A DNA stretch of 64,000 nt from a phage: sequence record PV874203.1. One strand, given 5' to 3'. Each line of letters starts with the position of its first letter. Position 1 is the first letter of the stretch. Below the pieces are notes generated by a model. It saw only the letters and a program-made list of their open reading frames with translations. It did no database searches and was not told where the DNA came from. The position numbers and the translations under genes were made by a program. Shown here in pieces: positions 13,397-61,602 of the stretch.

Positions 13397-16300
13397 ATGG
13401 CTAACATTAAACCGTGGGAAGAAGCTTCCAAAGCTCCTGCGTATCTGAATGCCTCTCCGGAGCAACAAGCTCAAATGAGAGAACAATATAAGGCAGCAGG
13501 TGGCTCTATTCCTGAGGAACAACCAGTAGCACAACCACAACAAGAAGAACGTGGTGCTATAGGTGAGTTTGCTCAAGGTGTGTCAAATGCTCTTCAATCC
13601 GGTGGTGCAAACATTGCAGCTAGTGCTGCTAAAGGTATTGGTGGTTTAGTTGAGATTGGTGAGAATCTAGCTGGAGCACAAACTAGTTATGGTAAGCGTA
13701 TCCAAGAGAACTCTCAGAACCTTCTGAAAGAACGTATGGATAAGATTGAGGATGGGATTGGTAAAACTGTCGGTCAATATGCTGGTGTTGCTGGTGATAT
13801 TGGTTTGACAGTTGCTAACCCATTAGCTGCCGCCGCTATCATTGCAGGTCGTGAGACAGGTCGTGCATATGCAGACCAAACCCCTGAAGAGGGAGAAGAT
13901 AAGTCTATTCTAGATGCAGCCTTAGTTGGTGGTGCTAACTATGCGGCTCAGAGAATCCTTCCGGGTGCTGTTGGTACAGCTGAGTCCACACTTGGACGTA
14001 TTGGTCAGAACGTTGCTACTAACGCAGTGGCTGGTGCTAAAGGTGGTGCTCTTGTAGGTGCTGCTGAAGCTCAGAACAAGCATGGAGATGATACAACCTT
14101 TGCTAATGTATTAGAGGGTGCTATCGAAGAAGGTGCTATGGGTGCTGCATTCGGTGGTGCAGTTGGTGGTGTTCATGGTTTGATTAGCCGTCCGGATTCT
14201 GCTGTCTTCAAGAACACTCCAGAGTATGCGAAGACTGATATTGCTGCTGATGATGAACTGATTCGTAGTGCTAAGAATATTGATGAATTGAAAGAAGCTT
14301 ACTCTAAAGCTGAAACTGCTAACGCTGCTTCCGCTCTTAATCTTCTAGATGAGAATGGATTCCGTATCACAGATGCTGTTGCTGTAGATTCTCCTGCTGC
14401 CCAGCGTATTCTTAATACAGACCAAGCTCGTGCTGAGAAAGCTGCTTCTGTTCAGAAAGAACATTCTAATATTCCTGGCCTCAATCCTTTGGCTTCTCCT
14501 GCTAAAGTTCGTGGTAAAGCATTCGCTGATAACGAGCACAACCAGAAGCAAGCTGTTGCTATGAAAGATGCAATGGCTGATTACACAAAGGATAACACTA
14601 AAGCTCTTACAGATGTTCTGGATAATCTTGATCGTGAGTTAGTTTCTCTCCGAGCTTCTGGTGATTTTACTGGTAGTCCGATTGATATTAAGAATCGCAC
14701 ACAAGCTGATCGTGACTTCATTGATGCTTACAAGACTTTCTATAATGAAGCAAACCGATTCAAAGCTCGTGATGGTGAAGACTTTAATAACTTTGTAGAG
14801 AAAGCTACTGAACTACAGAAGATGGCTGACAATGTTTCTCCAGAGATGAAACAAGCTATTGGTGGGTTGAAGAAACTGAAAGGTATGCCTGAAGGTTTTA
14901 ATCCTATCCAAGACGCCTACACTCTGAACAACACAGCTAAGTTCATGAGCAACCAAGACCGTGGTTGGACTTCCCTTACTGATGATGGCTTCCGTGAGAC
15001 TTCTTCTCCTAGTCTGGTTATGAACACCCTTGGTGCTGCTAAGTATGCTCTGAATCGCTTCTCTTCTCAGCGTGCTCGCTCTCAACGTGTTAAGCAACAA
15101 GAATCTAACAGTGAAGCTATCCGCTCTCTGGCTCGTGGTGATTTGGAAGTTGCTCGTGCTAAATCCACTGCTGATGAAGCTCGTGCTAAAATGGAAGAAG
15201 AACCAGTTGTTGATGACATTAAATTTAAGACGCAAAATGACGTAGAAACCGAACCGGTTCGGGAGCCTTCTTCTAGTACTGTGACGGAAGAAAATCTTCC
15301 TTCTTCTGCTCCTCAAGAAACTCCTCTTACAGCTCGTGATTTAGTTGCGCAAAGACGTGCTATCCGTCAGGCTGAACAGCGTCGCGCTGAAGAAGAGGCA
15401 GCAGCTGCTCAAGAAGCTCCGGTCGAACAAGCTCCACAGGCTGAACCTCTCCCTGCTCGTAATCCTTTAGAGGAACGTCGTGCGATGGAACAGCAACGTG
15501 CTCAAGAAGAGGCCACACAGGCTCCAGAACCCACCGTAGAGGAACCAACAGTTAAAGCTGAGCCATTACCTGCTCGTGCTCCTAAAGCTCCTAAGGAAGC
15601 TGTACAGGACGTTAAACCGGCAAGTGGTGTAGAACGTTTAGCTGCTATGTCTAGTGCTGCTCGTCAGGCTACTAAAGATCGTGCAGAACGTTTTGCTCGT
15701 TCTCTGTATTCCAAGGCTGCTAAGGCTAAAGCTACTGCTGAAAACTTCTTGGCTTACAAGGGTGATCCTAAGGAACTGATGCGTCGCATTCGTCAGGAAG
15801 ATAATGCTATCAACACTGAACGTCATGAAGAAATGGCTCGTAACCAGTTAGCTTCTCAGCAAGGTATTGCTACTGCTAAGAACAACACTGTACGAACTAA
15901 TTTTGCTGAATGGGTTAAGGAACGTGGTCTGCCAGAAGATATTGCTACTAAGGCATTACGTGCTGAAGAGAAAGGTTTAGGTGGGAACGTGACTAACTTG
16001 GATAGTTTGAAACGTCGTGCTGAAAGGTTGTATCAGAAGCAGCGTGAGGCTGAGTTTGATAGACTGTACCAAGAAGCTCTGGAAGAGAACAAAGCTTTCG
16101 ATAAGAAGGATGCTCCTAAACTGGTTGACCAGAAGAAAGAGCTTCAGTCTGAGATTGATACTTTGATTGATTCAGAACCTTTACGTCCTGCTCAGAAAGA
16201 TGCTATGCGCAGGCTGATGAATGATTATGTAGATGGGAAGTTTAAATCTTCAGAGAAGGCTGGTAGGGAAGAGGCTTTGGAAGTTGGTCAGATGAAGGAT

Positions 16301-29784: not shown

Positions 29785-29789
29785 TTATA

Positions 29790-30113
29790 TTACGATGAGC
29801 TTAAAGCTCCTTTTCGCTTAGCAGCACCAGCTGCTTTTCCAGCTCGATTACCACTTTTGCCGCCGTTTGAACGGTTTGAGCTGACTGATTCAATACGTAA
29901 GTTGCTTGACGCATTAGAGCCTCCAGACTTGACAGCTCGTTTGTGTCCAACATCTTTACCTCTGACAGCAGCTTTTCCATCGCGCTTTTCAACGATGCGA
30001 CGTGCACGGTGGCGCTGAGCATCTCCGCTCTTGCTCCCAACGCCTGTCTCACCACGGGCAATTGCGGTACGTCTTTCTTGTGCATAATCTCTCTTTCCTA
30101 CATGATCTGCCAT
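29790..30113 (-). CDS. small basic Gly/Ser/Arg/Lys-rich protein
   Basis: 107 aa; strong RBS TTAAGGAGTTTTAA-ATG; preferred over the overlapping alternative frame, which lacks an RBS. Confidence 0.45.
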   Translation of the reverse strand: MADHVGKRDYAQERRTAIARGETGVGSKSGDAQRHRARRIVEKRDGKAAVRGKDVGHKRAVKSGGSNASSNLRIESVSSNRSNGGKSGNRAGKAAGAAKRKGALSSS

Positions 30114-47842: not shown

Positions 47843-47852
47843 AACTAACCTT

Positions 47853-49049
47853 TTATTTTCCTAAAAATAATCCGCTCATAACACCATCCCATTCAGAGGA
47901 TGGAATCACTGAATACACCGAACTTTGGTCCAGAGTTCCACTACTAAATCGCTGAACAATGTTATAAATGTTGAACAGATCTTTAGTCTCAGCACGAATG
48001 CCGTAGATTAGGCTGTTAGCTGTTCTTTCATCTTTAGACACTCGACGGGCAAAGTTAATCAGAAGGTTATCACATTTCAGGATTTCTGATTCACTCTCTA
48101 CTAGATCAGGGTGCATCACCGGCAAGAACATCGAGTTATTAACTCGTAATTCTGCTGTTTCATCATTCTCATAATGAATCCACTTAAAGTCTTCATCACG
48201 GAAATGACCACACCCCTCTCTGTACGACTGCTGACGCCAAGGAACTTGAAATGCTTCAGCATACTTATCAGCCATACCAACTGTAAATAACGACGCCGGG
48301 AAGATACAAGCATCCCAATCATTACCAACCAGAGTTGCTTTCGTTTCCCCTAAGAGGTTAGTGTAAGTGCTAACCATTCGTGAGTAAACATAAGCCTGAA
48401 GGATTGTCCAGCCCTCAACCAACCATTTATGGAGGAAGGTTTCAACTTGACTCTCTTCATCTTCACAATAGAAGGTTCGGTCTAGCATTAAATAGAACAG
48501 ACAACGATCAGCAGGAACGTTCTCAGTTGCTACGCCCATAAAACCTTTCTCGTGCCAGCGTAAACAGGAGGGACGATCTTTGTCCACAAATGCTTCCATA
48601 GCTTCCAGTACAGCACGAGGTGTGGTTCGATGCTCAGGGTTTTTACTATTCCAACGATCAATGTTATTCTTGGGAGGTGTGTCTTCATCTTCATATGAAC
48701 ACCAACCTAAAGCTGCGGATACAGGTTTTTCATCACGCCAACGTATAAAACCTAACATCTTCATGTGAGTTCCGGAGTTCCAGATATGCTTGATTTTACA
48801 CATATCCATCTCTCGGCTTAACAGGAACTCTTCCCCATCAGCACTACGAACGTTAGCTTCTTCATGCCACACTCGAACGTGCATATTCCACCCATGAGTC
48901 GCCTCATACATGTTAGGGTCAAAGTATTCGTCTTCGTAATCATCTTCATCAACGCCACCGTTATAGTTGCGAAGCTGAAGGAACCCATAACAAGGAGGGT
49001 GGACCGTTAAAACATTACCTTCAGTATCTTCTAATGTTACTGGAAACAT
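47853..49049 (-). CDS. hypothetical protein (cluster member)
   Basis: 398-aa acidic ORF with several Cys/His. Confidence 0.45.
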   Translation of the reverse strand: MFPVTLEDTEGNVLTVHPPCYGFLQLRNYNGGVDEDDYEDEYFDPNMYEATHGWNMHVRVWHEEANVRSADGEEFLLSREMDMCKIKHIWNSGTHMKMLGFIRWRDEKPVSAALGWCSYEDEDTPPKNNIDRWNSKNPEHRTTPRAVLEAMEAFVDKDRPSCLRWHEKGFMGVATENVPADRCLFYLMLDRTFYCEDEESQVETFLHKWLVEGWTILQAYVYSRMVSTYTNLLGETKATLVGNDWDACIFPASLFTVGMADKYAEAFQVPWRQQSYREGCGHFRDEDFKWIHYENDETAELRVNNSMFLPVMHPDLVESESEILKCDNLLINFARRVSKDERTANSLIYGIRAETKDLFNIYNIVQRFSSGTLDQSSVYSVIPSSEWDGVMSGLFLGK

Positions 49050-49060
49050 TATACCAACCT

Positions 49061-49423
49061 CTATTGGTTTTTAATCAACTCAATCGACTTACGGATATAA
49101 AGAATATCTCGGAAGTTTCTGTAGTTGTTCATAAATTGGTGCTTCTGGAAAGTAGCTTCTTCCAGAGCTTTCTTTGCTTCTGCGTAGTTTTTACGGGCAA
49201 GATGTACAACCCGCTCTGGTAACGTGTTTGCACGACGGATGAGATACTTGTGAGCTTTCATGTTGCTTTGCTCACGAGAAATCTTACCTTTAGCAACTTT
49301 GATACCATTTGCAATCCAAGCAAGTTCTTGCTCAAGCTCACCGTTGGACATTCCACCGAGATTTGATGCAACCTTGTTCAGAGTTTCAATATTAACGTTG
49401 CCCTTGATGGGACGTGTATTCAT
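49061..49423 (-). CDS. hypothetical protein
   Basis: 120-aa basic helical ORF; RBS AGGAG upstream. Confidence 0.45.
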   Translation of the reverse strand: MNTRPIKGNVNIETLNKVASNLGGMSNGELEQELAWIANGIKVAKGKISREQSNMKAHKYLIRRANTLPERVVHLARKNYAEAKKALEEATFQKHQFMNNYRNFRDILYIRKSIELIKNQ

Positions 49424-49770
49424 ACTTACTCCTGTTGTTTACACTCGTCAATAACCCACTGATAAGTGGATTGCCCAGAAAAGAAACACTGAATAAATCC
49501 AGATGTTCTCTGCGTTACCAGTGCTAGTGCACAAATCACTACCGCTGCTGCTAGCAGTTTTAAATCTAATTTAGACATATTTCCTCTCATTGAATTTAAA
49601 AAAGGACTCTCCGAAAAGAGCCAAGCTTTAAATCCAAAAAAAGATATTACCCAATATCTGTGGATAACCTGCTCTTAAAATATCTATCCGACGGATGTTT
49701 GAGGAATACTCCTCGCCCTAGCATCGGCCCCATACGGGAAATATATTAAGATTAGGTTAGTTGAGTCAGA

Positions 49771-49800
49771 ATAACTCACATAGCCCTCCGGAGGGCTATA
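49771..49800 (-). repeat. conserved hairpin element, copy 1 (terminator or RNA-processing site)
   Basis: CTCACATAGCCCTC-CGG-AGGGCTATAGG; stem and 5' flank shared with the copy at 55737..55775, loop differs. Confidence 0.45.
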
Positions 49801-49804
49801 GGCG

Positions 49805-50269
49805 TTACTCTATCCTAACTGAAGGGCAGTATTTCTCTTTCTTGCTGCGATACATCACAACAATCCAGTTTGAATCACGACGCTCTTTCTTACGTCGTTT
49901 CTTTTCAGCACGAGTTTCATATGTGCTAGTTCTGTGGTCACGGTATATTCCACGAAGTTCATAAAATGCCCAACCACCACCAAACACTACACCAGCCAAA
50001 GCAGCCAAAGACAAGGCACCAAGAGCAGGGGCAGTGAACCATGTCCACCAATTGAATGACAAAAAATTCTCATGCCCAAGTAAAGAGCCACCAATCATGG
50101 ACAGTGCAGCGTATACAACCCCTAACAGCAGCGTCAGTGCAATGAAGTGCATCACTGTACGCCAGAAGTATTCACAGAAGTTGGTCATGTTGTCCCAATG
50201 ATAATTGGGTAGGCTTGACATGGCTTTGTTGAACTTGTGCAACCAGCCGTTCTTGTTAACCTTGATCAT
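49805..50269 (-). CDS. integral membrane protein
   Basis: 154 aa with several hydrophobic helices. Confidence 0.5.
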   Translation of the reverse strand: MIKVNKNGWLHKFNKAMSSLPNYHWDNMTNFCEYFWRTVMHFIALTLLLGVVYAALSMIGGSLLGHENFLSFNWWTWFTAPALGALSLAALAGVVFGGGWAFYELRGIYRDHRTSTYETRAEKKRRKKERRDSNWIVVMYRSKKEKYCPSVRIE

Positions 50270-50502
50270 TACTCACCTTTCTTGGCACGATCTTTGGCAG
50301 TTTTGCCAGTGCGGATACGATGGGAAACGTTAACCAGAGTGCCACCATCAACTACGGTAACACTCTTGTTTTTAGCCAGATCGAACACAGTTTTCTCCGT
50401 GCCACCCAAGCGAATTTGCTTAGGCTCACTGAAGGTTTGGGTTGATTTGGATTGGAACTGGAACGGTTGACGAATTGCATCGATTGCGCTTACTTTAGAC
50501 AT
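50269..50502 (-). CDS. hypothetical protein
   Basis: 77-aa ORF; RBS AAGGAA. Confidence 0.4.
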   Translation of the reverse strand: MSKVSAIDAIRQPFQFQSKSTQTFSEPKQIRLGGTEKTVFDLAKNKSVTVVDGGTLVNVSHRIRTGKTAKDRAKKGE

Positions 50503-50574
50503 AGGGGAAATTCCTTAAAAAGTTATGGCTGCGTAGAGGGAATTCCCTACGCAAATTGGGCCGCCCACAGAGAG

Positions 50575-50592
50575 GCGTCATAGTACTAAAAG
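50575..50592. repeat. conserved 18-nt element GCGTCATAGTACTAAAAG, copy 1
   Basis: Identical 18-mer at 58023..58040 with similar flanks (ACAGAGAG...AGG); a hairpin lies nearby in both copies. Confidence 0.4.
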
Positions 50593-50733
50593 GAGGAGAG
50601 AAGAGGGCTTATTTAGCTACCTTTTTCTGTCCGTTTACGAACCAGATAATTGAACCGTCAGGCTGTCGTTGCCCGAAGCCTTTCTGGTTAATCATATCGT
50701 CATAAGAATATGCTTTGATTCTCATTTGTTTTC

Positions 50734-50976
50734 CTATGGAGTTAAGATAATTTCAGCCTTACTAAACTTCTCACCAACTTCAAGAGTATCAGCAACAGGA
50801 CGGGGCACACCTGTACCCAAACAAACAGCCCTTCGATACCCTCCAGTCACAGGCATCATCAAATAGATGACCTGATTATCATCTTCTTTTAAAGTAAAGA
50901 TATCAGCGATCGATAGATCTTTAACAAAGAGTTTCTTTTCTTCTTCATGATGAACTTTGATATGTATTGTGCTCAT
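50734..50976 (-). CDS. small early protein, paralogous family member
   Basis: Shares the L..L..GD(V/I)F ... NL.TG pattern with eight other small ORFs. Confidence 0.45.
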   Translation of the reverse strand: MSTIHIKVHHEEEKKLFVKDLSIADIFTLKEDDNQVIYLMMPVTGGYRRAVCLGTGVPRPVADTLEVGEKFSKAEIILTP

Positions 50977-50978
50977 AC

Positions 50979-51224
50979 CTACTCCTGAACAACTGACATA
51001 CGAATCACTTCAACAGGTGCATCACTTTTCATAACACCCAGTACGCCAGTAAGAAGATTAACGGTCGTAATCCAACCTTCTTCGACAGAGATTTTGTTGG
51101 ATACATTATTAACACGGATGTAATACTGAGGGGATGCTGTTCCTCTCTGAACTACGAAAGGGTTTCCGGGAATAATTGTAGCCAGTGAAACAGTGTTATC
51201 TTTAATCTTTGGGATAATCTTCAT
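50979..51224 (-). CDS. small early protein, paralogous family member (divergent)
   Basis: 81 aa, similar length and pattern (…NLLTGVLG…). Confidence 0.4.
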   Translation of the reverse strand: MKIIPKIKDNTVSLATIIPGNPFVVQRGTASPQYYIRVNNVSNKISVEEGWITTVNLLTGVLGVMKSDAPVEVIRMSVVQE

Positions 51225-51232
51225 ATTGATTC

Positions 51233-51556
51233 CTATTTAAGTTTTAGGCTAATATTAAGGTGCATACATGCCCTGTTCTGTACAGCAGCATAACTTCTAC
51301 CGAGCATGTCAGCCATTCTCTGAATAGACATGAACCCAGCATTACGGATAAGGAACTGGTCTTCTTCTTTAGACCACTTGACTCGGATTACAGCTCTAGA
51401 AATACCGAACTTAGTGCAAGCTGTATTAACTGCATTCTCCGTTACATTCATAATCTGAGCAACTTCTTGAACCGAGTACTCTTTGATTAGTCTCCGAAGA
51501 TTTTCAATCTGCATCGGAGTCCATATAGTTCTTCGAGCTTTCATTTTACCACCCAT
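51233..51556 (-). CDS. helix-turn-helix DNA-binding protein
   Basis: IENLRRLIKEYSVQEVAQIMNVTENAVNTACTKFGI looks like an HTH. Confidence 0.45.
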   Translation of the reverse strand: MGGKMKARRTIWTPMQIENLRRLIKEYSVQEVAQIMNVTENAVNTACTKFGISRAVIRVKWSKEEDQFLIRNAGFMSIQRMADMLGRSYAAVQNRACMHLNISLKLK

Positions 51557-51767
51557 GTCGACTTTTAACTAACACACCATCAATTATCAGATAATGTAAA
51601 TGTCTTATCATATCTGAAGACAGATCTCCATGAGCGCTATTCCACTGAAGGAAGTTCATATCCTTCCAATCTGTGTAGTGCTTTTTGGCTTCTTCCTCTA
51701 TCTGACTAAGAGTTACCCTTCTGAAAGGATATGGACTATACTTAATAAGTGTTTCACATTTTGTCAT
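51546..51767 (-). CDS. hypothetical protein
   Basis: 73-aa ORF. Confidence 0.4.
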   Translation of the reverse strand: MTKCETLIKYSPYPFRRVTLSQIEEEAKKHYTDWKDMNFLQWNSAHGDLSSDMIRHLHYLIIDGVLVKSRHGW

Positions 51768-51811
51768 ATATCCTCCAATTAAATGTTTATGTAAGACTTG
51801 CTTAGATAAAG

Positions 51812-51846
51812 ATTCAATAAAATAGGGGGAGGGGACGAATCCTCCC
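51812..51846 (-). terminator. hairpin terminator (minus strand)
   Basis: GGGAGG-loop-CCTCCC hairpin; minus strand has T-rich tract after it. Confidence 0.4.
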
Positions 51847-52057
51847 TTATCCTATTAATTAATATTGCATGTAAGATCTAACAATCGGTTGCCTTTGTAG
51901 GAATAAGCGTTATGCCAATCCAGCACTAAACTCCCGCCCCCTTAGTGGGCTGGGTTTATAAAGGGTAACGCCCTTATGGGCTAGTTACATGAATGTTAGT
52001 TTGATAGGGGATCTGAAGTCCTATCTCAAAGGACTCTCGTAAGAATCCTTCACGATA

Positions 52058-52315
52058 TTACTTAAAGATGAAATGTATAACTGCATCATATGCTTTAGAC
52101 AGAAGCCAACCTATCGGATAACAGACTCCTGCCAGTATTGAGATGGGCCATAACATAATTAAGATCACAACCATCATCTCATCAGGTTCAGAGCTGGTAG
52201 ACCCTGTTGTAATGACCCCTTTTAGTAGACCTTTCTTGTATAGCAGTTTCAGCACTAAAACAGAAAGGAATACTCCAATAAAGTAAACTGAGATAAAAAT
52301 ATCAAGTAAACCCAT
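52058..52315 (-). CDS. small membrane protein
   Basis: 85 aa, two hydrophobic helices. Confidence 0.45.
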   Translation of the reverse strand: MGLLDIFISVYFIGVFLSVLVLKLLYKKGLLKGVITTGSTSSEPDEMMVVILIMLWPISILAGVCYPIGWLLSKAYDAVIHFIFK

Positions 52316-52326
52316 TTAATCACCTA

Positions 52327-52458
52327 TTACTTATTCAACTTTCGTCTGCTATCTCGCCAAGCCAACCAAGTGTAGGTTTTCAGCTCTTCAAAGTCTTCTG
52401 GAGAGAATAGATATTCTTTGAAGGTATTTCCAAACCACTTTAAAAATTCTTCAGTCAT
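52327..52458 (-). CDS. hypothetical small protein
   Basis: 43 aa, not in track; AAGAGG RBS. Confidence 0.3.
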   Translation of the reverse strand: MTEEFLKWFGNTFKEYLFSPEDFEELKTYTWLAWRDSRRKLNK

Positions 52459-52466
52459 AAAACCTC

Positions 52467-52640
52467 TTAACAAGACTGGTCACATGGCTGATCACCACAT
52501 GTTTTACAAATCACTGGTGAATAACTACAGGAAGGATATACTGACACACCGTCAAACGTCTCACACCCACAGTCAGGGCATGTACCATTGGATTCCATGT
52601 CATAATCATCATCCACTTCACCACCACCATAACAGCTCAT
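52467..52640 (-). CDS. small Cys-rich (zinc-binding?) protein
   Basis: 57 aa, not in track: MSCYGGGEVDDDYDMESNGTCPDCGCETFDGVSVYPSCSYSPVICKTCGDQPCDQSC; strong RBS AAGGAG. Confidence 0.45.
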   Translation of the reverse strand: MSCYGGGEVDDDYDMESNGTCPDCGCETFDGVSVYPSCSYSPVICKTCGDQPCDQSC

Positions 52641-52649
52641 ATGAACTCC

Positions 52650-52871
52650 TTAGTAAACTAAACCTATAGCCTTTGCATCAGGCTGAGGGACTACTTTTGC
52701 ATTAGGGCGATAACCATCCACTGAACCATTCCAAAGGTTGACACAGGTGATATACCCATCGTTCAAGTAGTCTGTTTTAATCCAGAAGTGTTTATCGTGA
52801 CCAAAGATACTTCCTTTTGGCAGTGTGGACAATTCAACAGTTTTAAGGGATTGTTTAGAATCTAATTTCAT
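52650..52871 (-). CDS. small early protein, paralogous family member
   Basis: LKTVELSTLPKGSIFGHDKHFWIKTDYLNDGYITCVNLWNGSVDG. Confidence 0.45.
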   Translation of the reverse strand: MKLDSKQSLKTVELSTLPKGSIFGHDKHFWIKTDYLNDGYITCVNLWNGSVDGYRPNAKVVPQPDAKAIGLVY

Positions 52872-52880
52872 ATAAGTTCC

Positions 52881-53078
52881 TTAATACACCAAGCCATGTA
52901 AGAGAAACACTCTCTTAGTTAACTCTGCTTTAGCTCTGTAATAAGCCTTAGAACCTAACAGGCGGCGTTTAACAAAGAACTTAATGTCATTGCTAACATC
53001 TTGTATTAAACGCTCCTGTACAGCTTCTGAGGAGCTATTAATTGAATCAATTAACACCTTTGTAGATGTATAATTCAT
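52881..53078 (-). CDS. hypothetical protein
   Basis: 65-aa ORF. Confidence 0.35.
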   Translation of the reverse strand: MNYTSTKVLIDSINSSSEAVQERLIQDVSNDIKFFVKRRLLGSKAYYRAKAELTKRVFLLHGLVY

Positions 53079-53079
53079 A

Positions 53080-53379
53080 TCACCACTCCTTACCGGTTGT
53101 TGTTACAGAGCCACCACACCACAACGCTGTATCAATCACAACATTATCTGGCGTAGACTTCTCTTCGTTGATAGAAGGGTTAGCATTGGAGCAGGTTGCT
53201 CCGTTCCAGCGCATATCGATTTCACCAGAAGGAACCTTCTCACCTTTATGCCAGCGAGAAACACAAACACCTTCCACTGCTACTGCACACCATCCATCAG
53301 GACGGCTCTGTACGCAGCCTGTAAGGGCCACACAGACAAGGAAGATACAGATTAAGGATATTACACCACCCCAACTCAT
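53080..53379 (-). CDS. lipoprotein
   Basis: Signal peptide with lipobox LTGC; Cys-rich mature region. Confidence 0.55.
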   Translation of the reverse strand: MSWGGVISLICIFLVCVALTGCVQSRPDGWCAVAVEGVCVSRWHKGEKVPSGEIDMRWNGATCSNANPSINEEKSTPDNVVIDTALWCGGSVTTTGKEW

Positions 53380-53398
53380 AACTATCTCCTACGTTGAT

Positions 53399-53474
53399 TG
53401 GTGCACCCTACAGGACTCGAACCTGTAACCAACGACTTAGAAGGTCGCTGCTCTGTCCATTGAGCTAAGGGTGC
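53399..53474 (-). tRNA. tRNA-Arg (anticodon UCU), CCA encoded
   Basis: Minus-strand cloverleaf: 7-bp acceptor stem GCACCCU/AGGGUGC, D-arm GCUC/GAGC, anticodon loop CUUCUAA, T-arm ACAGG-UUCGAGU-CCUGU, 3' ACCA. Confidence 0.85.
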
Positions 53475-53483
53475 TATATTTAT

Positions 53484-53792
53484 TTATAAGGAGAAAGACT
53501 TCTTACAATCCTTCTCTTCAAAAGTGTAGTAGCCTGTTGTATCAGGGAAGTAGGCATACTTTGTTTCTTTGCCATCAATAGCCATGACACGATTACCAGA
53601 AGTTGTTTCTACAAACAGAAGCCCATCTCTTACCATACCATGAGATTCTTTGATACCAGTTAAGCTATGCTCTTTAAGAGTGCATTGCTGAACACTCTGA
53701 TACTTAACTCCAATCTCTGCACTATTAACAGAGATGATACCAATGGTTGTCATTAGTAGTAAGGTTGAGATGATAAAATGCTTTTGTTTCAC
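53484..53792 (-). CDS. secreted/periplasmic protein
   Basis: N-terminal signal peptide MKQKHFIISTLLLMTTIGIISVNSA. Confidence 0.5.
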   Translation of the reverse strand: MKQKHFIISTLLLMTTIGIISVNSAEIGVKYQSVQQCTLKEHSLTGIKESHGMVRDGLLFVETTSGNRVMAIDGKETKYAYFPDTTGYYTFEEKDCKKSFSL

Positions 53793-53810
53793 ATTAACCT
53801 CTGGATTTAT

Positions 53811-54020
53811 TTAACTGAAGATACGCAAGGCCACATCGTGATAGATATGACCGGGGACTTTGTGCTGTTCTATTTTCAAACAGCGTTTACAGACACGAGA
53901 TACACGAGATTCTTTTCTCTCGACCGGAGTGTCTTTAGCGTGAGTAATATGTAAGTTTTCAGTGATCACCCACTCATGTTTACATCCAGAATCTTCGGGC
54001 TTTTTCTTACGAAAGAACAT
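53811..54020 (-). CDS. zinc-ribbon protein (paralogue pair A)
   Basis: CKHEW...CKRCL motif; similar to next gene. Confidence 0.4.
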   Translation of the reverse strand: MFFRKKKPEDSGCKHEWVITENLHITHAKDTPVERKESRVSRVCKRCLKIEQHKVPGHIYHDVALRIFS

Positions 54021-54029
54021 AACACCCCC

Positions 54030-54191
54030 TTAGATTACATCACGATGACTAACATCACCACACACCTTACACTGAATAACGTAACGTGTGCCCTTGTCAT
54101 TATTCCCATCTGAATCTGTATAGACCAGAGGGCGAGTATTAATAATCTTCCAATCATGACAATGAAAGACACGCTTTAGCCACTTGAACAT
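54030..54191 (-). CDS. zinc-ribbon protein (paralogue pair B)
   Basis: CHDWKI...CKVCG; start trimmed to an internal Met to remove overlap. Confidence 0.4.
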   Translation of the reverse strand: MFKWLKRVFHCHDWKIINTRPLVYTDSDGNNDKGTRYVIQCKVCGDVSHRDVI

Positions 54192-54198
54192 ATTAACC

Positions 54199-54450
54199 TC
54201 AAGCACAAGCAGGGAGAGTGATGATTTTATGCTTACCATCAAACTCTCCAAATAAACCTAAGAATGTAGGACTGTAAGTGCCAGTACAAACAAACTCATC
54301 AAACAGTGCGTTATAGCTAGGCTTAATCTTCCAAGCCCATACATAACCCATCTTGTCAATTGCAATGTAACGAGTGTTCAGAGGAACAGTCATCATCACA
54401 CCATCAACTTCAATCACTTTAGTTATTGGTGCAGCTTGGAAGTTTTTCAT
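54199..54450 (-). CDS. hypothetical protein
   Basis: 83-aa ORF. Confidence 0.4.
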   Translation of the reverse strand: MKNFQAAPITKVIEVDGVMMTVPLNTRYIAIDKMGYVWAWKIKPSYNALFDEFVCTGTYSPTFLGLFGEFDGKHKIITLPACA

Positions 54451-54677
54451 TACATTTCCTCTAACTTAAGAGTTGCTTTATATTCTTTAACCGGAGCGTC
54501 TTCAGGGAAAGAAAGTCTTTGAGAGGGTTGGGGTAATCGTACAGAAAACCCGCCACCAATCTTCATGTAGAAAGATTCTTGACTGGCAAGTTCTGTGTTG
54601 AATGTGAAAATAGAACCAATGCTCAAGTCTCGGAAAGTCTTTTGCTTTGGTTTAGTCGAGTCTAAAACGATATTCAT
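54450..54677 (-). CDS. small early protein, paralogous family member
   Basis: FRDLSIGSIFTFNTELASQESFYMKIGGG. Confidence 0.45.
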   Translation of the reverse strand: MNIVLDSTKPKQKTFRDLSIGSIFTFNTELASQESFYMKIGGGFSVRLPQPSQRLSFPEDAPVKEYKATLKLEEM

Positions 54678-54842
54678 ACTTTACCTTTGATAAAAATGTC
54701 ATTACCACAGACACAGCATGAACGAACAACAGTAGCGCCACGCTGAACGATACGAACCTCTTCTTTAACCAGATTAACACGAGCACCACAGCAAGGAGAG
54801 TTAACATAAGAGTAACCAGCTTGCGTATTCTTGATTGTTTGC

Positions 54843-55199
54843 TTAGACATTTGATTCGAGATCTCTTAGTTGTTCAGCCAATTGTTCGCACTCATTGATG
54901 CAGAACTCTTCTGTTCTTGGAACCCCATTAGGGTTGAACCGTGTCTTATCACACGCATGGGCACAATCAAACCCGATTGTATTTAAACCACCCATCTCTT
55001 CAAGAGTGTCTTGCCATGTTACACCACCGTGAACTCCAACATACCAAACAACCGCTTCCTCTCCGTTATATCCGGTGAAGTTTTTATGCTTTAAGCTGTC
55101 TGGTAGCTCTACATATCCACAAAGATGGGAGTCGTTCATGTGAATAATCACAGCACGAAGCCCTGATTTAGTTACCCAACCTTTAACCATGCGTCTCAT
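54843..55199 (-). CDS. hypothetical protein
   Basis: Start set at internal ATG with AGAGGTG RBS; the track N-terminus would read through a terminator hairpin. Confidence 0.45.
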   Translation of the reverse strand: MRRMVKGWVTKSGLRAVIIHMNDSHLCGYVELPDSLKHKNFTGYNGEEAVVWYVGVHGGVTWQDTLEEMGGLNTIGFDCAHACDKTRFNPNGVPRTEEFCINECEQLAEQLRDLESNV

Positions 55200-55239
55200 A
55201 TAAGCACCTCTTGTTAGTTTAAGTAAGAGTTGTCCCTTA

Positions 55240-55273
55240 ATTAAAACAACAAAGGCCACCCGATTGGGCAGCC
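55240..55273 (-). terminator. rho-independent terminator (minus strand)
   Basis: Minus strand GGCUGCCC-AAUC-GGGUGGCC followed by UUUGUUGUUUU; near-identical hairpin at 29765..29784. Confidence 0.55.
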
Positions 55274-55736
55274 TTTTATCTATTAACTGTTGTATGTCCA
55301 ATTACCTTGCTTGTTACGGATAGCTGACATTGCATGAAGCCAGAAGCCTTCCAGTTTCAGAGCACCGTTAGCTACTGCATCCATACGTTCAGGGCGGTTC
55401 ATAAGTTTGGTTGACACTTTCATACCTATATCTCTTTGTTAGTGGAGGCATTATTGCCAGTTGATATAAGGGATAGCCCTAGTCAGGAGACTAATTCTGA
55501 CCGCGTACTCATTGCCGACCTTCTCTGCCTAAGAGTTCAGGTTCTAGAGCTATCTCTTATTCCAACTGGTGAAGACTCCCTACCCCTAGGAAGTCTCCTG
55601 AATCCCAAACCGATACGTACCCCTACATATCAGAAAGTCTTTCGAAAATTAACAGGTTTTAGTCTAACACCGGATGTTCGAGCAAGCTCTCCCTAGCGGT
55701 GTGGCATATGCCTGAGTTAATAAGTTAATGAGGAAC

Positions 55737-55775
55737 ACCCTCACATAGCCCTCTGATAGACACAAGGGCTATAAG
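55737..55775 (-). repeat. conserved hairpin element, copy 2
   Basis: CTCACATAGCCCT-CTGATAGACACA-AGGGCTATAAG; same stem and flank as 49771..49800. Confidence 0.45.
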
Positions 55776-55781
55776 TCGGTG

Positions 55782-56000
55782 TTACTTTTGAGTCAAACAC
55801 AGATCAGGACGGGGCATAACAGTGGTTGATAGACCAAAGACTTCAACATAACCAGTGCCCAGATTGGCAGCCTTACGTAAACCGTCAGGGGTTTTATCTT
55901 CTAGCATCAGCCAGAAACGTTTATCGTAAGAGAAAACATCACCACCCTTAACGTCTTCTGCATTTGCATATTTAGGATAATCAACTACTTTAATTTCCAT
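55782..56000 (-). CDS. small early protein, paralogous family member
   Basis: AEDVKGGDVFSYDKRFWLMLEDKTPDGLRKAANLGTG. Confidence 0.45.
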   Translation of the reverse strand: MEIKVVDYPKYANAEDVKGGDVFSYDKRFWLMLEDKTPDGLRKAANLGTGYVEVFGLSTTVMPRPDLCLTQK

Positions 56001-56010
56001 TTACTTACCT

Positions 56011-56229
56011 TTACTGATAGATGGAGAGGTGGATAAGTTTATTCACATGAGCGAAGTTAGGTAGGATTTGCATCTCATTGTTGAAGATATTAAAACAACG
56101 AACCCCACCCTCTACAGCATAAGCAGATTTCTGAAACAGACTACCTCCCCACACAAATACATCATGTGTTTCAAGAGATCGTAACTGAACAGCCTCGTCA
56201 ACAACCTTCTTTTCAATGTTCATACTCAC
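56011..56229 (-). CDS. small early protein, paralogous family member (divergent)
   Basis: 72 aa, similar length and spacing in the tandem array. Confidence 0.4.
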   Translation of the reverse strand: MSMNIEKKVVDEAVQLRSLETHDVFVWGGSLFQKSAYAVEGGVRCFNIFNNEMQILPNFAHVNKLIHLSIYQ

Positions 56230-56480
56230 CCTTGATTAGTAATCACTACATCGTGAAACATGATAACACGGGTTGTAGAGTGTATCTTAATAACTTGCTT
56301 ACTTCTCAGATTAAGAACAACGCAACCTCCATCAGAAGGCTTAGTCTCTTCTATCTGAGAAGTAAATAACTGAACAACCATGTAGAAATCTGCACGGGTA
56401 TCCCTGATTTGGAATACATCTCCAAGTTTAAGATCACTGACATAAAGAGTTGGTTCATTTACCTTCAAATTAATCTTCAT
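56226..56480 (-). CDS. small early protein, paralogous family member
   Basis: VSDLKLGDVFQIRDTRADFYMVVQ...VVLNLRS. Confidence 0.45.
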   Translation of the reverse strand: MKINLKVNEPTLYVSDLKLGDVFQIRDTRADFYMVVQLFTSQIEETKPSDGGCVVLNLRSKQVIKIHSTTRVIMFHDVVITNQG

Positions 56481-56706
56481 CCTTAGCCCCTATGTTAGTT
56501 ATGTGGAGATCACTACGTACTTGGCAGACTTCATCCCGTTTAAAAGGCATGAGCTTTCCAGTTACCACATCAACACAGTTTACATAGTTATCTGCGTATA
56601 GTGTGTCGGTTCTAATATAAAGAGAGTCTTTACGCTCAAATAGAACCCCCGGCTTCATATTATTTAATCGAAGCATTGTACGATCGGATTTAATATTAAC
56701 TTTCAC
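56470..56706 (-). CDS. small early protein, paralogous family member
   Basis: LNNMKPGVLFERKDSLYIRTDTLYADNYVNCVDVVTG. Confidence 0.45.
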   Translation of the reverse strand: MKVNIKSDRTMLRLNNMKPGVLFERKDSLYIRTDTLYADNYVNCVDVVTGKLMPFKRDEVCQVRSDLHITNIGAKDED

Positions 56707-56708
56707 TG

Positions 56709-56966
56709 TTAATCCGCCTTATTCGTGAGTCGAGCGTTAACTTTCTTAACAACTTCATGAGTGAAACCATCAGAAATCACACCAGTTGAAAGGTTAATAT
56801 ATTTTCTCTGATCTCCTGATCTGTTATAAGCACTTGAGGACATATAATAATCACTCAGGTTCAGAGGGAACTGGAACACATCACCTGATTCTAAATCCCC
56901 AAGAGTCAAAACCTTTGGGGCGTTGTTCATATCAATTATCACTGTTAATCTCCTGCTGCTTAGCAA
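56709..56966 (-). CDS. small early protein, paralogous family member
   Basis: LGDLESGDVFQFPLNLSDYYMSS...YINLSTG. Confidence 0.45.
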   Translation of the reverse strand: MLSSRRLTVIIDMNNAPKVLTLGDLESGDVFQFPLNLSDYYMSSSAYNRSGDQRKYINLSTGVISDGFTHEVVKKVNARLTNKAD

Positions 56967-57228
56967 TAGCTACTCGCAAGTCTTCATTAGCACGAGCAAG
57001 GCGTAACACTTCATGGTTGAGGTTCTGAAGACGCTTGTTTCTGTCTTCAACTTGCATAATAAGATCGTTAAGAGTTTCTTTAACTTTCTCATTGTACATC
57101 TCATCCACTCGGACTAGAGATTTATACATTCTCTCCCAGCTTGCTGCTTTGTTTCTTAGAATAATAAATCCTATAACGCTGATAGTTAAACAGCTTACAA
57201 AAAGGAATTTATATACTTCTAAAGTCAT
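56932..57228 (-). CDS. membrane-anchored coiled-coil protein
   Basis: N-terminal TM helix (FLFVSCLTISVIGFIIL) then charged helical region. Confidence 0.45.
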   Translation of the reverse strand: MTLEVYKFLFVSCLTISVIGFIILRNKAASWERMYKSLVRVDEMYNEKVKETLNDLIMQVEDRNKRLQNLNHEVLRLARANEDLRVAIAKQQEINSDN

Positions 57229-57316
57229 ATTATTTACCCTTTATCAGAGATTAAAAGTAATATTATTTAAGTAAGTTATATTTAGTAAACTTATTTTCTA
57301 AGAAATTTTCAAAGGG

Positions 57317-57327
57317 TCTATATACAG
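57317..57327 (-). promoter_or_regulatory. TGTATATAG promoter-like motif variant (minus strand)
   Basis: Plus CTATATACAGAG is the reverse complement of CTCTGTATATAG, about 90 nt upstream of 56932..57228. Confidence 0.3.
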
Positions 57328-57427
57328 AGCATTACCCATAGTCCCAGAATACTACCATCTTTTTCAATAAATTTACTAAGTGGTTGGTTTATAAAGGAAT
57401 TTAGTTTGTCAAATCTGGCACTAGTGA

Positions 57428-57817
57428 TTATTCCCTAGAGCTATTATCGAACACTAAATCACCACAATACATAGGATTGGCATACCATTTTGGCACCCCT
57501 TCGCTCTTACTCTGAAAGTAAGTCCCACTATACAGCGGAACATAATTCTTCTTAAGGGCACGTTTAGCCAGCCGCTCGCTTTCTCTAATGGCTTGCTTAG
57601 TCATCGGATTTTTATCACGAATCAGCTTTACATAACGTTTATAAGGTTTCTCCTGTTTTAATAGTACCGGAATCCACTCAAACTGGTTCTTTTGTCTTAT
57701 CACCTGTTCAGCGGTCAGTTTTCGTTGAGCCATTCTATTTATCACGGTATCCGCAACCATAGCTTTACATGCGGTTGGCTGATTCCCTGCCTCATAATAA
57801 ATAGTCAATGTCAACAT
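57428..57817 (-). CDS. cell-wall hydrolase, SleB/Hydrolase_2-like
   Basis: IYYEAGNQPTACKAMVADTVINRMAQ...QKNQFEWI resembles the Hydrolase_2 family. Confidence 0.55.
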   Translation of the reverse strand: MLTLTIYYEAGNQPTACKAMVADTVINRMAQRKLTAEQVIRQKNQFEWIPVLLKQEKPYKRYVKLIRDKNPMTKQAIRESERLAKRALKKNYVPLYSGTYFQSKSEGVPKWYANPMYCGDLVFDNSSRE

Positions 57818-57862
57818 TAGCTGGGCCGTTGTTATCAGAACTTGCTACCTCCTGTTTTACGG

Positions 57863-57892
57863 GCATAAAAAAGCCCCAGCCGTAGCCGGGGC
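57863..57892 (-). terminator. rho-independent terminator (minus strand)
   Basis: Minus strand GCCCCGGC-UACG-GCUGGGGC followed by UUUUUUAU. Confidence 0.6.
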
Positions 57893-58022
57893 AAACCTGA
57901 AAGCAACATATGACCGTTGCTATAAATACACTCGCAAATGCACTTACAGCAACGCAAAAAGCCGCTCAAAGGCGGCTATGCGGAAGCTTCAAATGGGGAG
58001 AGGGCACGACGCGACAGAAAGA

Positions 58023-58040
58023 GCGTCATAGTACTAAAAG
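58023..58040. repeat. conserved 18-nt element GCGTCATAGTACTAAAAG, copy 2
   Basis: Identical to 50575..50592. Confidence 0.4.
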
Positions 58041-58057
58041 AGGGGGATATATTCCTA

Positions 58058-58501
58058 CTATTTAACCCTTGCCTCTTTGATGGGGTCAATGTATTTCTCA
58101 ACGCCCCACTTGTGTTTACTATCTGCATAGAAAACATCAGGAGCACACTGGCTTGTCTTAGGAAAAGCCTGCGGGTCTTTCGTGCTACCCTTAAACTTCT
58201 GTTTACCACGGGTGCGACCATTACAGAAGATTTCTAACTTCTTCTCCTCTTCTGTTTTAGCTCCCCCGCTCTTTAACAAAGAACGTTTATGATCAGCTAA
58301 CAACAACGCATCAGCACGATGGACACGATGGCCTACACGTTTTGCCACACTAGAAGGGATATGAGATTCAGCCTCAGCTTTTGCAGCACGGCGTTTTAAA
58401 CTGCGCTTACTAATGTAATTGGTTGCCTTCGGCTTCCCTTTCTCCAGTTCAGAGATAGAAAAACAACGCCCGCCCTTCATGCTGATTTTAGATTTAGTCA
58501 C
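58058..58501 (-). CDS. basic hypothetical protein
   Basis: 147 aa, Lys/Arg-rich. Confidence 0.4.
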   Translation of the reverse strand: MTKSKISMKGGRCFSISELEKGKPKATNYISKRSLKRRAAKAEAESHIPSSVAKRVGHRVHRADALLLADHKRSLLKSGGAKTEEEKKLEIFCNGRTRGKQKFKGSTKDPQAFPKTSQCAPDVFYADSKHKWGVEKYIDPIKEARVK

Positions 58502-58570
58502 AATCTTATTCCTTTTAGTGATAAATTATATCGGGCAAGCCCATCAAGGCGACGGGCTTGAACAAATAGC

Positions 58571-58780
58571 TTAATCAAGTAAACCGAATGACTTCCAACT
58601 ACGTAGCAGGATTGTACCATCATCCATAGTTACACATAATTTTAGTAGTGTTTTGTTGGTACTACTCACCGTTGTAATTTGTCCGGTTGTACATTTACCT
58701 TTATTGCTATAAAGATACATAACACGACGGCCTAACAAACGAGATGGCGCTTTCTTAAATTCTGAAATGTTAGTGATCAT
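58571..58780 (-). CDS. hypothetical protein
   Basis: 69-aa ORF. Confidence 0.4.
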   Translation of the reverse strand: MITNISEFKKAPSRLLGRRVMYLYSNKGKCTTGQITTVSSTNKTLLKLCVTMDDGTILLRSWKSFGLLD

Positions 58781-59001
58781 AATGCTTGATACCTTTGGAT
58801 ATGTTCAATACGGGTGGATTGAGCAAATGACGCTTTAACCGCCATCTTTCTAGCTTCTTCCTTACGTTGGTTAGTGTGTACAGTATCCCAATGATTGTTA
58901 TCACGTTGGCGCTGTAATATCTTACTACATTTGCGATGGTTTCCCGTGCTGCGATGTTTCTCACAAATAGGGCACTTGCCAAAATTATTACTGAATATCA
59001 T
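58777..59001 (-). CDS. zinc-finger protein
   Basis: GKCPICEKHRSTGNHRKC motif; start overlaps upstream stop (ATGA coupling). Confidence 0.4.
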   Translation of the reverse strand: MIFSNNFGKCPICEKHRSTGNHRKCSKILQRQRDNNHWDTVHTNQRKEEARKMAVKASFAQSTRIEHIQRYQAL

Positions 59002-59225
59002 TTTCTCAATCCCAGCTTTCTTAAGATACGGCCTAACGTTGTTTCTTGCGTGATAATATAGCTGATCGCCTCACGTTCCAACGTTTCAATTTTCATTGGC
59101 GACGGATACCATTCACCAGTAATCACGCATTTACATTCAACGCCATACTTTTTAGATAGGCGGTAATGTTGACCGTTGACAAGATTCCTATAGATCGTGG
59201 TGTGTGTAATTAACATGATCGTCAC
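58998..59225 (-). CDS. hypothetical protein
   Basis: 75-aa ORF. Confidence 0.4.
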   Translation of the reverse strand: MTIMLITHTTIYRNLVNGQHYRLSKKYGVECKCVITGEWYPSPMKIETLEREAISYIITQETTLGRILRKLGLRK

Positions 59226-59246
59226 CTTTGATTATATTCTTTGATT

Positions 59247-59269
59247 AATGCACTGAATCAATGCACTGA
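59247..59269. repeat. tandem direct repeat AATGCACTGA x2 (candidate operator)
   Basis: AATGCACTGA-atc-AATGCACTGA about 25 nt upstream of the 58998..59225 gene start. Confidence 0.4.
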
Positions 59270-59270
59270 T

Positions 59271-59304
59271 AAAAGAAAAAGGCGATACCCGTTAAGATAG
59301 CGCC
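59271..59304 (-). terminator. rho-independent terminator (minus strand)
   Basis: Minus strand GGCGCUAUC-UUAACG-GGUAUCGCC followed by UUUUUCUUUU, after the 59329..60237 gene. Confidence 0.5.
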
Positions 59305-59328
59305 TCATGTTTATTAGAATTATCTTAC

Positions 59329-60237
59329 TTATGCTGCCTGACGTGCCGCCATAATCTCAGCCGCTTTACGCAATACTTCCTCTTCTTCTTCTTTCGCAGC
59401 TTGTTCGGTACGGGTAGCAACCGTTGAAGAGATACGACCGCGCAGTCCTTCTAACTTCTCCTGCATAGCTGCGATAGTCTTTTCCATTTCATCAGCGTAT
59501 GAATCGAGTGATTCCAGTTCCTTGCTTGATGCGTTCATCAGATAATCGTCAGAGATCGCTACCGTTGAAGCCGTGACTTTCTTGATGAGTGAATCAAAGG
59601 ACTTTTTAACCTTGCCCACTTCTTCACTCAGTGCGATCGTGTTATCGCTGGTAGCGCCGTTGCGCTCATCAGCCAGTAATTTGGCTTCAATACGGATTGC
59701 ATTCAAGCGTTCAACCAAAGCGTAAATATCTTGGTTAAAGTCTTCTTTATTCTTTGCCGGAATTTGCAGGTGTGCCGCTACGTTGTCATTGCAACCTTTG
59801 AAGAAGTTAGGGTTATCGACTTCAATTTCACGACCTAAGGCAAAGTTTTCGAAAGCATTTGACCAGCGAGCGCGGTTTTGTTCCATTTTGGCCTTAATTT
59901 GCGCCTCTTTCGCATCTTCTTTCGCTTTCGCTTCACCTTCCAGATTAATCCACTTCTTACGGCCATTCGCCGCATCAGTGTTAAACTTGATAGGAGTTAA
60001 GAAAGTGATTGCAGTGGCGATCACGTCCATATCGCGGAAGCGTTCAGTTAACAGAAAGTCAACCGCCGTCTGCAATACTTCTAACTTTTTACCGTTACTG
60101 CGGAAGTGCTGCAAGTGCCCTAACAGAAAATTAGAAACATCTTGCTTGATCGCCGCGTTATTGCTACGAATGTTGTTAGCCAGTGCGTTAAAACCAGATT
60201 CTTTTACCAGATTAAAAACTTTAGCCATGATATTCAC
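59329..60237 (-). CDS. hypothetical early protein
   Basis: 302-aa helical, charged ORF; RBS AAAGGTG; codon composition differs slightly from the middle genes. Confidence 0.55.
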   Translation of the reverse strand: MNIMAKVFNLVKESGFNALANNIRSNNAAIKQDVSNFLLGHLQHFRSNGKKLEVLQTAVDFLLTERFRDMDVIATAITFLTPIKFNTDAANGRKKWINLEGEAKAKEDAKEAQIKAKMEQNRARWSNAFENFALGREIEVDNPNFFKGCNDNVAAHLQIPAKNKEDFNQDIYALVERLNAIRIEAKLLADERNGATSDNTIALSEEVGKVKKSFDSLIKKVTASTVAISDDYLMNASSKELESLDSYADEMEKTIAAMQEKLEGLRGRISSTVATRTEQAAKEEEEEVLRKAAEIMAARQAA

Positions 60238-61054: not shown

Positions 61055-61065
61055 TTAAAGAGCGG
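61055..61065. repeat. TTAAAGAGCGG repeat, copy 1
   Basis: ATTGTTAAAGAGCGG; one of four copies in the ORF-poor region. Confidence 0.45.
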
Positions 61066-61288
61066 TAAATCTGTCAGCGTGCTTTCTCACGCTACGCAAC
61101 TGTTAGCCGTTGTTACGCTTTTCACTTAAGCGGTGATTTGCTTCAGTGATGCTCATTATGGACCATGATGTTTTTGCTGTCAACCGCTTTTTTAATCTTT
61201 TTCGTCGTTCCCGCTATTGGGAGGATATATCAACCCGCTTTATTGGGTTGAAGATTAAGCGATGAGGCTTAACCCATGATTCATATTG

Positions 61289-61298
61289 TTAAAGAGCG
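61289..61298. repeat. TTAAAGAGCG repeat, copy 2
   Basis: ATTGTTAAAGAGCG; plus-strand context gives TTGTTA-N17-TATAGT. Confidence 0.45.
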
Positions 61299-61573: not shown

Positions 61574-61602
61574 GATGCTTTAAGTCATCGCTGACTATGC
61601 TC

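Follow-up and report, generated by a model that had tools for sequence, protein, structure and literature searches.

In the 64,000-nucleotide (nt) stretch of phage DNA analysed here (sequence record PV874203.1, hereafter the window), an exact 18-nt repeat, GCGTCATAGTACTAAAAG, stands at two distant places, 50575-50592 and 58023-58040, and the question raised by this locus is what kind of signal the two identical copies represent. An earlier note had taken them for a shared regulatory element, such as a promoter or operator for a subset of early genes, or for a processing signal. The source is a phiEco32-like E. coli podophage (Kuravirus, Gordonclarkvirinae), matched by about 100 phage records at 80-99% identity. 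The explanation that we favour, and regard as probable though well short of assured, is that the 18-mer represents two of three copies of a predicted nick-site motif of the type known from Pseudomonas phage tf, [G/C]TACT/RTGACG. Genome comparisons establish the identity of this motif to the nick consensus, the pattern of its conservation and its co-distribution with a small phage protein.

Sequence and conservation of the repeat

Both exact copies of the 18-mer were confirmed in spacers between minus-strand open reading frames (ORFs), and the window holds no further exact copy. When up to three mismatches were allowed, three matches were found versus 0.08 expected, and a third, degenerate copy lies at 15270-15287 on the strand opposite to the two exact ones. 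This late-region copy was absent from the earlier note, as was the finding that conservation is confined to a 10-11 nt core of the 18-mer. Read on the minus (sense) strand, the repeat is CTTTTAG-TACTATGAC-GC, i.e. CTTTTAGTACTATGACGC in the direction of transcription, with pyrimidine-rich stretches on both sides of the motif; site 3 is read in its late ORF as the codons AGT ACT GTG ACG. All three sites lie on the sense strand of the local genes.

The core corresponds to a known recognition sequence. In Pseudomonas phage tf, 14 ligatable single-strand nicks are known, every one of them in 5'-TACT/RTGMC-3' with cleavage after the fourth base; the sites predicted in LUZ24, PaP3 and MR299-2 are chiefly TACTATGAC, and nanopore sequencing of phage Rembedalsseter located 13 nicks at WACTRTGAC, a motif present in excess across 60 related Pseudomonas phages. 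TACTRTGMC has exactly three matches in the window (15277-15285 on the plus strand, 50577-50585 and 58025-58033 on the minus strand), and each of them coincides with a copy of the extended motif; two read TACTATGAC and the other TACTGTGAC. The flanks agree as well: position +10 is G in 20 of the 23 tf and LUZ24 sites and position -1 is G or C in 20 of the 23 and never T, and all Gordonclarkvirinae sites read [G/C]TACTRTGACG, which is the same preference. The 11-mer S-TACTRTGAC-G occurs three times in the window versus 0.05-0.07 expected (P about 2e-5 to 6e-5; the expected count was calculated analytically).

Comparison with related phages had been set beforehand as the refutation test, and the element proved to be conserved across three genera. 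The whole genomes of phiEco32 and KBNP1711 contain three consensus matches apiece and no more, at homologous positions, and the same three positions are kept in Kuravirus, Nieuwekanaalvirus and Suseptimavirus. Comparison of the spacers of phiEco32, EP335 and KBNP1711 (both Nieuwekanaalvirus) and SU7 (Suseptimavirus) indicated that A-N-TACT-R-TGACG is invariant at both spacers while the flanks diverge; only R toggles between A and G, and this sole variable position is also the degenerate one in the tf consensus. The phiEco32 counterpart of site 1, in the gp94/gp93 spacer, is the exact 18-mer, and that of site 2, in the gp120/gp119 spacer, differs by one substitution at the permitted R position only, giving the core TACTGTGAC. 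In IMG/VR the exact 18-mer was found in kuravirus contigs only. At site 3, TACTGTGACGGAAGA is kept in six genomes of the three genera within a low-complexity stretch whose identity is otherwise 72-78% and in which insertions and deletions occur; the codon before ACT varies (AGT, GCT, ACT) with its final T constant, and third-codon positions are retained. Across the genomes compared, the motif is under nucleotide-level constraint at three fixed positions.

In phiEco32 the sites lie at 27.9, 63.1 and 70.6 kb of 77.55 kb, the three standing at about 9.0%, 18.7% and 64.0% from the right (early) end. The major nicks of T5 are at 7.9, 18.5, 32.6, 64.8 and 99.5%, and the likeness to the phiEco32 positions may be a coincidence.

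Sites 1 and 2 belong to the early region, which is transcribed leftward; strong sigma-70-type promoters lie upstream of both, at about 61.2, 61.6 and 63.6 kb of the window. Site 2 marks the end of the first early operon, directly before a double terminator, and site 1 stands about 7.4 kb further in. The statement that each copy precedes a minus-strand gene is accurate for site 1, where the start codon (50502) follows 73 nt downstream, and applies only loosely to site 2, where two terminator-like hairpins separate the motif from the next gene (start 57817). Likewise, the flanks of the two 18-mers, described as similar, are alike without being identical: one side has ACAGAGAG in one copy and ACAGAAAGA in the other, and the opposite side AGGAGG and AGAGGG. 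The two hairpins that had been paired with the copies are present (GCGTAGAGGGAATTCCCTACGC at 50531-50552 and GCCGCTCAAAGGCGGC at 57961-57976); these nearby structures are elements separate from the motif, site 1 having a messenger RNA hairpin and site 2 terminators (Table 1). Kuravirus and Nieuwekanaalvirus both keep the site-1 hairpin, in which EP335 shows an A-to-G change preserving a U.G pair, and the first terminator-like stem after site 2 is kept in all three genera. GACGC-N8-10-GCGTC repeats, analogous to the small stem-loop at site 1, trail the motif at most homologous sites, and the SU7 equivalent of the stem-loop at site 2 is followed by TTTTGT and annotated as a terminator.

Table 1. 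Coordinates of the motif copies, predicted nicks, neighbouring hairpins and the candidate nickase gene in the window.
Feature	Position	Strand	Remarks
Site 1, 18-mer CTTTTAGTACTATGACGC	50575..50592	-	Core G-TACTATGAC-G at 50576-50586; exact repeat, consensus match
Site 1, predicted nick	between 50582 and 50581	-	TACT/ATGAC split
Site 2, 18-mer	58023..58040	-	Core 58024-58034; exact repeat, consensus match
Site 2, predicted nick	between 58030 and 58029	-	
Site 3, G-TACTGTGAC-G	15276..15286	+	Within late ORF 13352-17818 (1488 amino acids), phiEco32 gp26 homologue
Site 3, predicted nick	between 15280 and 15281	+	
Hairpin GCGTAGGGAATTCCCTCTACGC	50531..50552	-	Past site 1, ahead of the next gene's ribosome-binding site
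Small stem-loop CGCCU / GGGCG, CU-rich loop	50562..50577	-	Overlaps 3' end of site-1 core
Stem-loop of site-2 motif 3' half	58005..58030	-	UAUGACGC pairs with GCGUCGUG 10 nt downstream
Rho-independent terminator-like hairpin AGCCGCCTTTGAGCGGCT, then TTTTT	57955..57977	-	Downstream of site 2
Second terminator-like hairpin GCCCCGGCTACGGCTGGGGC, then TTTTTT	57867..57892	-	Also given as 57873-57892
Candidate nickase gene, basic HNH-like protein (107 amino acids)	29790..30113	-	phiEco32 gp58 homologue, phrog_4590

Further observations were made around the early-region sites. Between the two terminators, the sense RNA at 57893-57959 forms a long, near-perfect hairpin of about 18 bp, and the fold of 57860-57990 (minus strand) has z = -5.5 versus shuffles; a role as a small structured RNA or in processing is possible, and the sole Rfam match, MicX (E = 0.17), is weak noise. 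The region at about 60250-63650 is long and apparently non-coding, and includes the strongest sigma-70-like early promoters (61631, 61183 and 63646, minus strand); its phiEco32 equivalent, 72786-74731, is a stretch of about 2 kb without an annotated coding sequence.

A candidate nickase and its distribution

Phages tf and LUZ24 are syntenic with the early/middle module of phiEco32, sharing a COOH-NH2 ligase, an amidoligase, GFAT, an ATP-grasp protein, GGCT, a primase/helicase, an exonuclease subunit, a DNA polymerase and a 5'-3' exonuclease. The best-conserved function-unassigned protein common to the kuravirus, tf and LUZ24 is that of the gp58 family (phrog_4590, which carries no function assignment), and as the most likely enzyme it is possibly the protein that makes the nicks in the kuravirus. 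Its homologues are encoded by ORFs at 16126-16413 in tf and 15622-15930 in LUZ24 and are 57-59% identical to the kuravirus protein. Neither ORF shares its frame with the gene annotated at its place, tf_29 (16115-16429) or LUZ24 gp26 (15668-15937), both of them labelled 'transmembrane'; either the deposited frame is wrong or the genes overlap. Directly 3' of the stop codon of the candidate gene in the window lies one copy (29753-29790) of a 38-nt terminator-like repeat, AAAGGCCACCC..GGGTRGCCTT; the other, 79% identical to it, is at 55242-55279 and was scored as a minus-strand terminator-like element.

Conservation within the family, which comprises 185 clusters, is tight, and a few of the source names read 'HNH' or 'McrA'. 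The window protein had no match to Pfam PF01844, and the tf and LUZ24 homologues scored 13.7 and 12.2 bits (gathering cut-off 21.4) at their D-H...GG...N region. In the alignment of 27 diverse members, H57, G64-G65, N71-L72 and N80 are invariant, which fits the His...Asn...Asn/His spacing of HNH enzymes with a GG loop. The H57...N80 region is preceded by a nearly invariant basic segment, RGETGVGSKSGDAQRHRARR. A profile search of the PDB with the family gave no match, and among known structures no homologue of the N-terminal basic domain was detected.

In all, 247 phage records encode the protein, covering Gordonclarkvirinae, LUZ24-like phages, tf, Salmonella 7-11, Cronobacter GAP52 and Proteus Privateer-like phages as well as Aeromonas LAh and APT65, Vibrio Vp_R1 and E. 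coli PJNS034. Salmonella phage 7-11, which encodes the protein and belongs to another family (Grimontviridae), has 13 consensus sites versus 1.4-2.4 expected, mostly AC-TACTGTGAC-G. One of them is on the plus strand in plus-strand late genes, 11 are on the minus strand in minus-strand genes and one is antisense, so that 12 of the 13 are sense; judged from gene tables, most of the core copies fall in annotated coding regions. Within 40 IMG/VR loci around the protein gene (661 kb in total), 69 sites were found on the gene strand versus 8.7 expected, and 8 on the other strand versus 10.9 expected. The sole locus with a reverse bias was IMGVR_UViG_3300006802_000901 (18.8 kb), with no gene-strand site and five on the other strand. 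Proteus phage Privateer, of which half of the genome was covered, has 2 sites in 45.5 kb and is uninformative.

Aeromonas phage LAh_9 has no TACTRTGMC and instead carries 10 copies of TACGRTGMC versus 1.3-2.0 expected, in the same AC...G context (TACGGTGAC / TACGGTGACG, e.g. at 14792, 16083, 19257 and 86345); the 9 copies for which genes are annotated are all sense-oriented. In the LAh_9 protein, SKSKDA replaces the otherwise invariant segment SKSGDA, and the Lys there may be a specificity determinant. The co-distribution would fit a phage-encoded, sequence-specific protein with a co-varying target. A broader proposal, which we put forward tentatively and consider doubtful as a whole, is that the small HNH-like protein (gp58 / phrog_4590) would be the nickase of tf-type nicks across several podophage families, its recognition sequence co-evolving (TACT- mostly, TACG- in LAh_9), with Gordonclarkvirinae pared down to three fixed non-template-strand sites and an altered active site.

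Predicted nicking and rival explanations

Nicks are probably made in kuravirus DNA. The gp58-family protein would recognise the approximately 10-bp sequence [G/C]TACTRTGACG in duplex phage DNA and, late in infection, would cut one strand after TACT, namely the motif-bearing non-template strand. The products would be ligatable 3'-OH/5'-P nicks in packaged DNA, as experimentally shown for tf, and they would be sealed after injection; phiEco32 encodes a ligase. Two of the predicted nicks would lie in early-region spacers (minus strand) and one in a large late gene (plus strand), all on the sense strand. More speculatively, nicks confined to the non-template strand would leave the way free for RNA polymerase, and they could promote recombination at mosaic junctions.

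A number of points weigh against this interpretation. The bare 9-mer occurs 3 times in the window versus 1.1-2.3 expected, which is not significant, and the sites occupy both physical strands (one plus, two minus) and so depart from the single-strand rule of tf, LUZ24, T5 and phiKMV-type nicks. The searchable literature yielded no physical nick data for any phiEco32-like phage, and a literature search found no papers linking the small HNH protein to nicks. Several of the protein-encoding IMG/VR loci have no site within 10 kb, and the association between gene and motif is confounded by shared ancestry. As to the enzyme, Gordonclarkvirinae proteins all read DVGH, whereas relatives have VDH (tf, LUZ24, 7-11 and LAh_9 among them) or HH. 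In HNH enzymes the residue before the catalytic His ligates the metal (D839/H840 in Cas9, D40/H41 in T4 endonuclease VII), and the kuravirus enzyme may be weak or inactive because Gly replaces this metal-ligand residue.

This substitution leads to a rival explanation that we consider unlikely: the Gordonclarkvirinae protein would have lost catalysis, and the sites, instead of being nicked, would be bound with high affinity to regulate or organise the DNA, for instance as a roadblock or an aid to termination where the first early operon ends. The DVGH form is found only in the lineage with just three sites, site 2 lies immediately upstream of terminators conserved in three genera, and the near-invariant N-terminal basic segment would fit sequence-specific DNA binding. 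However, His57, Asn71 and Asn80 are invariant in Gordonclarkvirinae, which is unexpected if catalysis is dispensable, and the R position varies exactly as it does at nicked sites; moreover, a roadblock at site 3, in the middle of a late structural gene, makes little sense.

A signal at the RNA level, with UACURUGACG in the transcript acting as a cleavage or processing site or as a translational signal, would account for the sense-strand bias, which holds for 3 of 3 sites here, for 12 of 13 in 7-11, for all 9 annotated-region copies of LAh_9, and for 12 of the 14 tf sites and 8 of the 9 LUZ24 sites; but this placement is also explained by an avoidance of template-strand nicks. The motif does hold AUG/GUG and UGA, often overlaps gene starts or stops in tf, and pairs through its 3' half into small hairpins. 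Against this, the tf motif is a physical DNA nick even at the antisense sites sci13 and sci14, where the motif is carried by no sense transcript. A search of 50300-58300 against Rfam returned only a tRNA-Arg and sub-threshold noise, with no family at the motif. An ORF starting at the motif ATG was also rejected as an identity for the element: no Shine-Dalgarno sequence precedes it, and its length is not conserved (29 codons here, 20 in EP335). We regard an RNA-level signal as quite improbable.

The regulatory functions proposed in the earlier note fared differently from the element itself: a real, shared and conserved cis element is there, and its assignment as a promoter, operator or processing signal is largely unsupported. 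The restriction to a subset of early genes does not hold, since the third conserved copy lies within a late structural gene and the copies in 7-11 are mostly in annotated coding regions. An operator was suggested by an 8-bp palindrome, TAGTACTA, in which TAG is AAC in the two other genera; its loss there argues against a dimeric operator. That TACTAT would serve as a -10-like element, read by host sigma-70 or a phage factor for the early genes or for a short RNA running to the site-2 terminator, is very unlikely. The hexamer equals TATAAT at four of six positions, and at site 2 transcription beginning some 7 nt past the hexamer would yield an RNA of about 65 nt to the first terminator; but a scan of 47000-64000 for sigma-70 -35/-10 pairs found none at 50575-50592 or 58023-58040, and the motif has neither a -35 nor an extended -10 element. 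With G at the R position the hexamer becomes TACTGT, a weaker -10 that is nonetheless tolerated freely, conservation extends 3' (TGACG) and not 5', and copies lie in annotated coding regions of this phage, 7-11 and tf. The promoter of the phage sigma factor gp36 (tAATGTAtA / AATGTA) has a different sequence, neither site is included in the published SU10 promoter/terminator table, and the motif is not among the published phiEco32 promoters. The element should not carry a promoter annotation. A T7-type primase site (GTC on the complementary strand) was rejected too, the conserved bases being on the wrong side of GTC.

The BLAST matches of many relatives begin or stop at the motif edges: those for site 1 begin at query position 80 (window 50569), and those for site 2 end at 224, 230 or 246 (window 58033, 58039 and 58055). 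These ends suggest that the motif marks junctions between conserved and swapped gene cassettes, and nick-stimulated recombination would fit them. Separately, the GenBank kuravirus records NJ01, MN03, PGN6866 and PE006, deposited independently of one another, begin about 0.1-0.7 kb downstream of site 2 (window approximately 57370-57910, PE006 at 57910), which may reflect a copied convention or a nick-proximal read-end artefact that misleads terminus calling. It is scarcely probable that the motif is nothing but a recombination or mobile-element boundary, i.e. a shared linker or homing-endonuclease target for cassette exchange without a role in the virion: the match ends at its edges and the variation of flanking genes among isolates speak for it, but it leaves unexplained why site 3 lies within a conserved structural gene, why the motif equals the tf consensus and why a strand-specific excess is seen across phage families, and such a boundary is compatible with the nick model and probably its consequence rather than a true alternative.

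Comparison with known nick systems

Ever since T5, packaged phage DNA has been known to carry sequence-specific nicks, and their purpose is a 50-year-old question. The present analysis reports the tf-type nick motif in kuraviruses, a lineage where it was previously not reported. If the nick reading is true, the range of the motif would go beyond Pseudomonas phages and take in other families with E. coli, Salmonella and Aeromonas phages, and the long-sought tf-type nickase would have a concrete candidate gene. As phiEco32 has only three sites and a tractable host, knock-outs of sites and gene would be simple, and kuraviruses would offer a minimal, genetically tractable E. coli model for the purpose of phage genome nicks. 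Nicks also affect nanopore and other long-read sequencing, terminus calling and DNA preparation of therapeutic kuraviruses.

Among systems resembling the kuravirus sites in outline, the gp36-dependent middle/late promoters of phiEco32 are likewise short conserved intergenic repeats in the same phage group, but they have another sequence and other locations, and no mapped promoter lies at gp94/93 or gp120/119. The nicks of T5/BF23 (consensus 5'-R/GCGCRGG-3' according to the tf paper) and of phiKMV-like phages (5'-CGACxxxxxCCTA/CTCCGG-3') share the concept, a few sequence-defined ligatable nicks in packaged DNA, whereas their recognition sequences and phage lineages are unrelated and all their nicks are on a single strand. 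On the side of the enzyme, I-HmuI and the Gme and GVE2 HNH proteins are, like the candidate, small and phage-encoded, with a ββα-metal motif to which the His-Asn-Asn spacing of the candidate would correspond, and provide the precedent for nicking; unlike them, the candidate lacks zinc-binding cysteines and stays below the Pfam HNH threshold, and its gene is neither intron-associated nor located beside the terminase genes.

The closest counterpart is found in tf and the LUZ24-like phages (Bruynoghevirus, including Rembedalsseter), whose nicks have the same core, the same degenerate position and the same flank preferences (-1 G/C, +10 G), and which share with the kuravirus the conservation of positions among relatives, the replication and amidoligase module and the small HNH-like protein. 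The kuravirus differs in having 3 sites per genome of about 77 kb compared with 9-14 per about 45 kb, in the distribution of its sites over both strands following transcription rather than on one strand, in its host, E. coli, and in the Gly, not Asp, before the catalytic His of its candidate enzyme; its nicks are predicted from sequence, whereas those of tf were shown experimentally.

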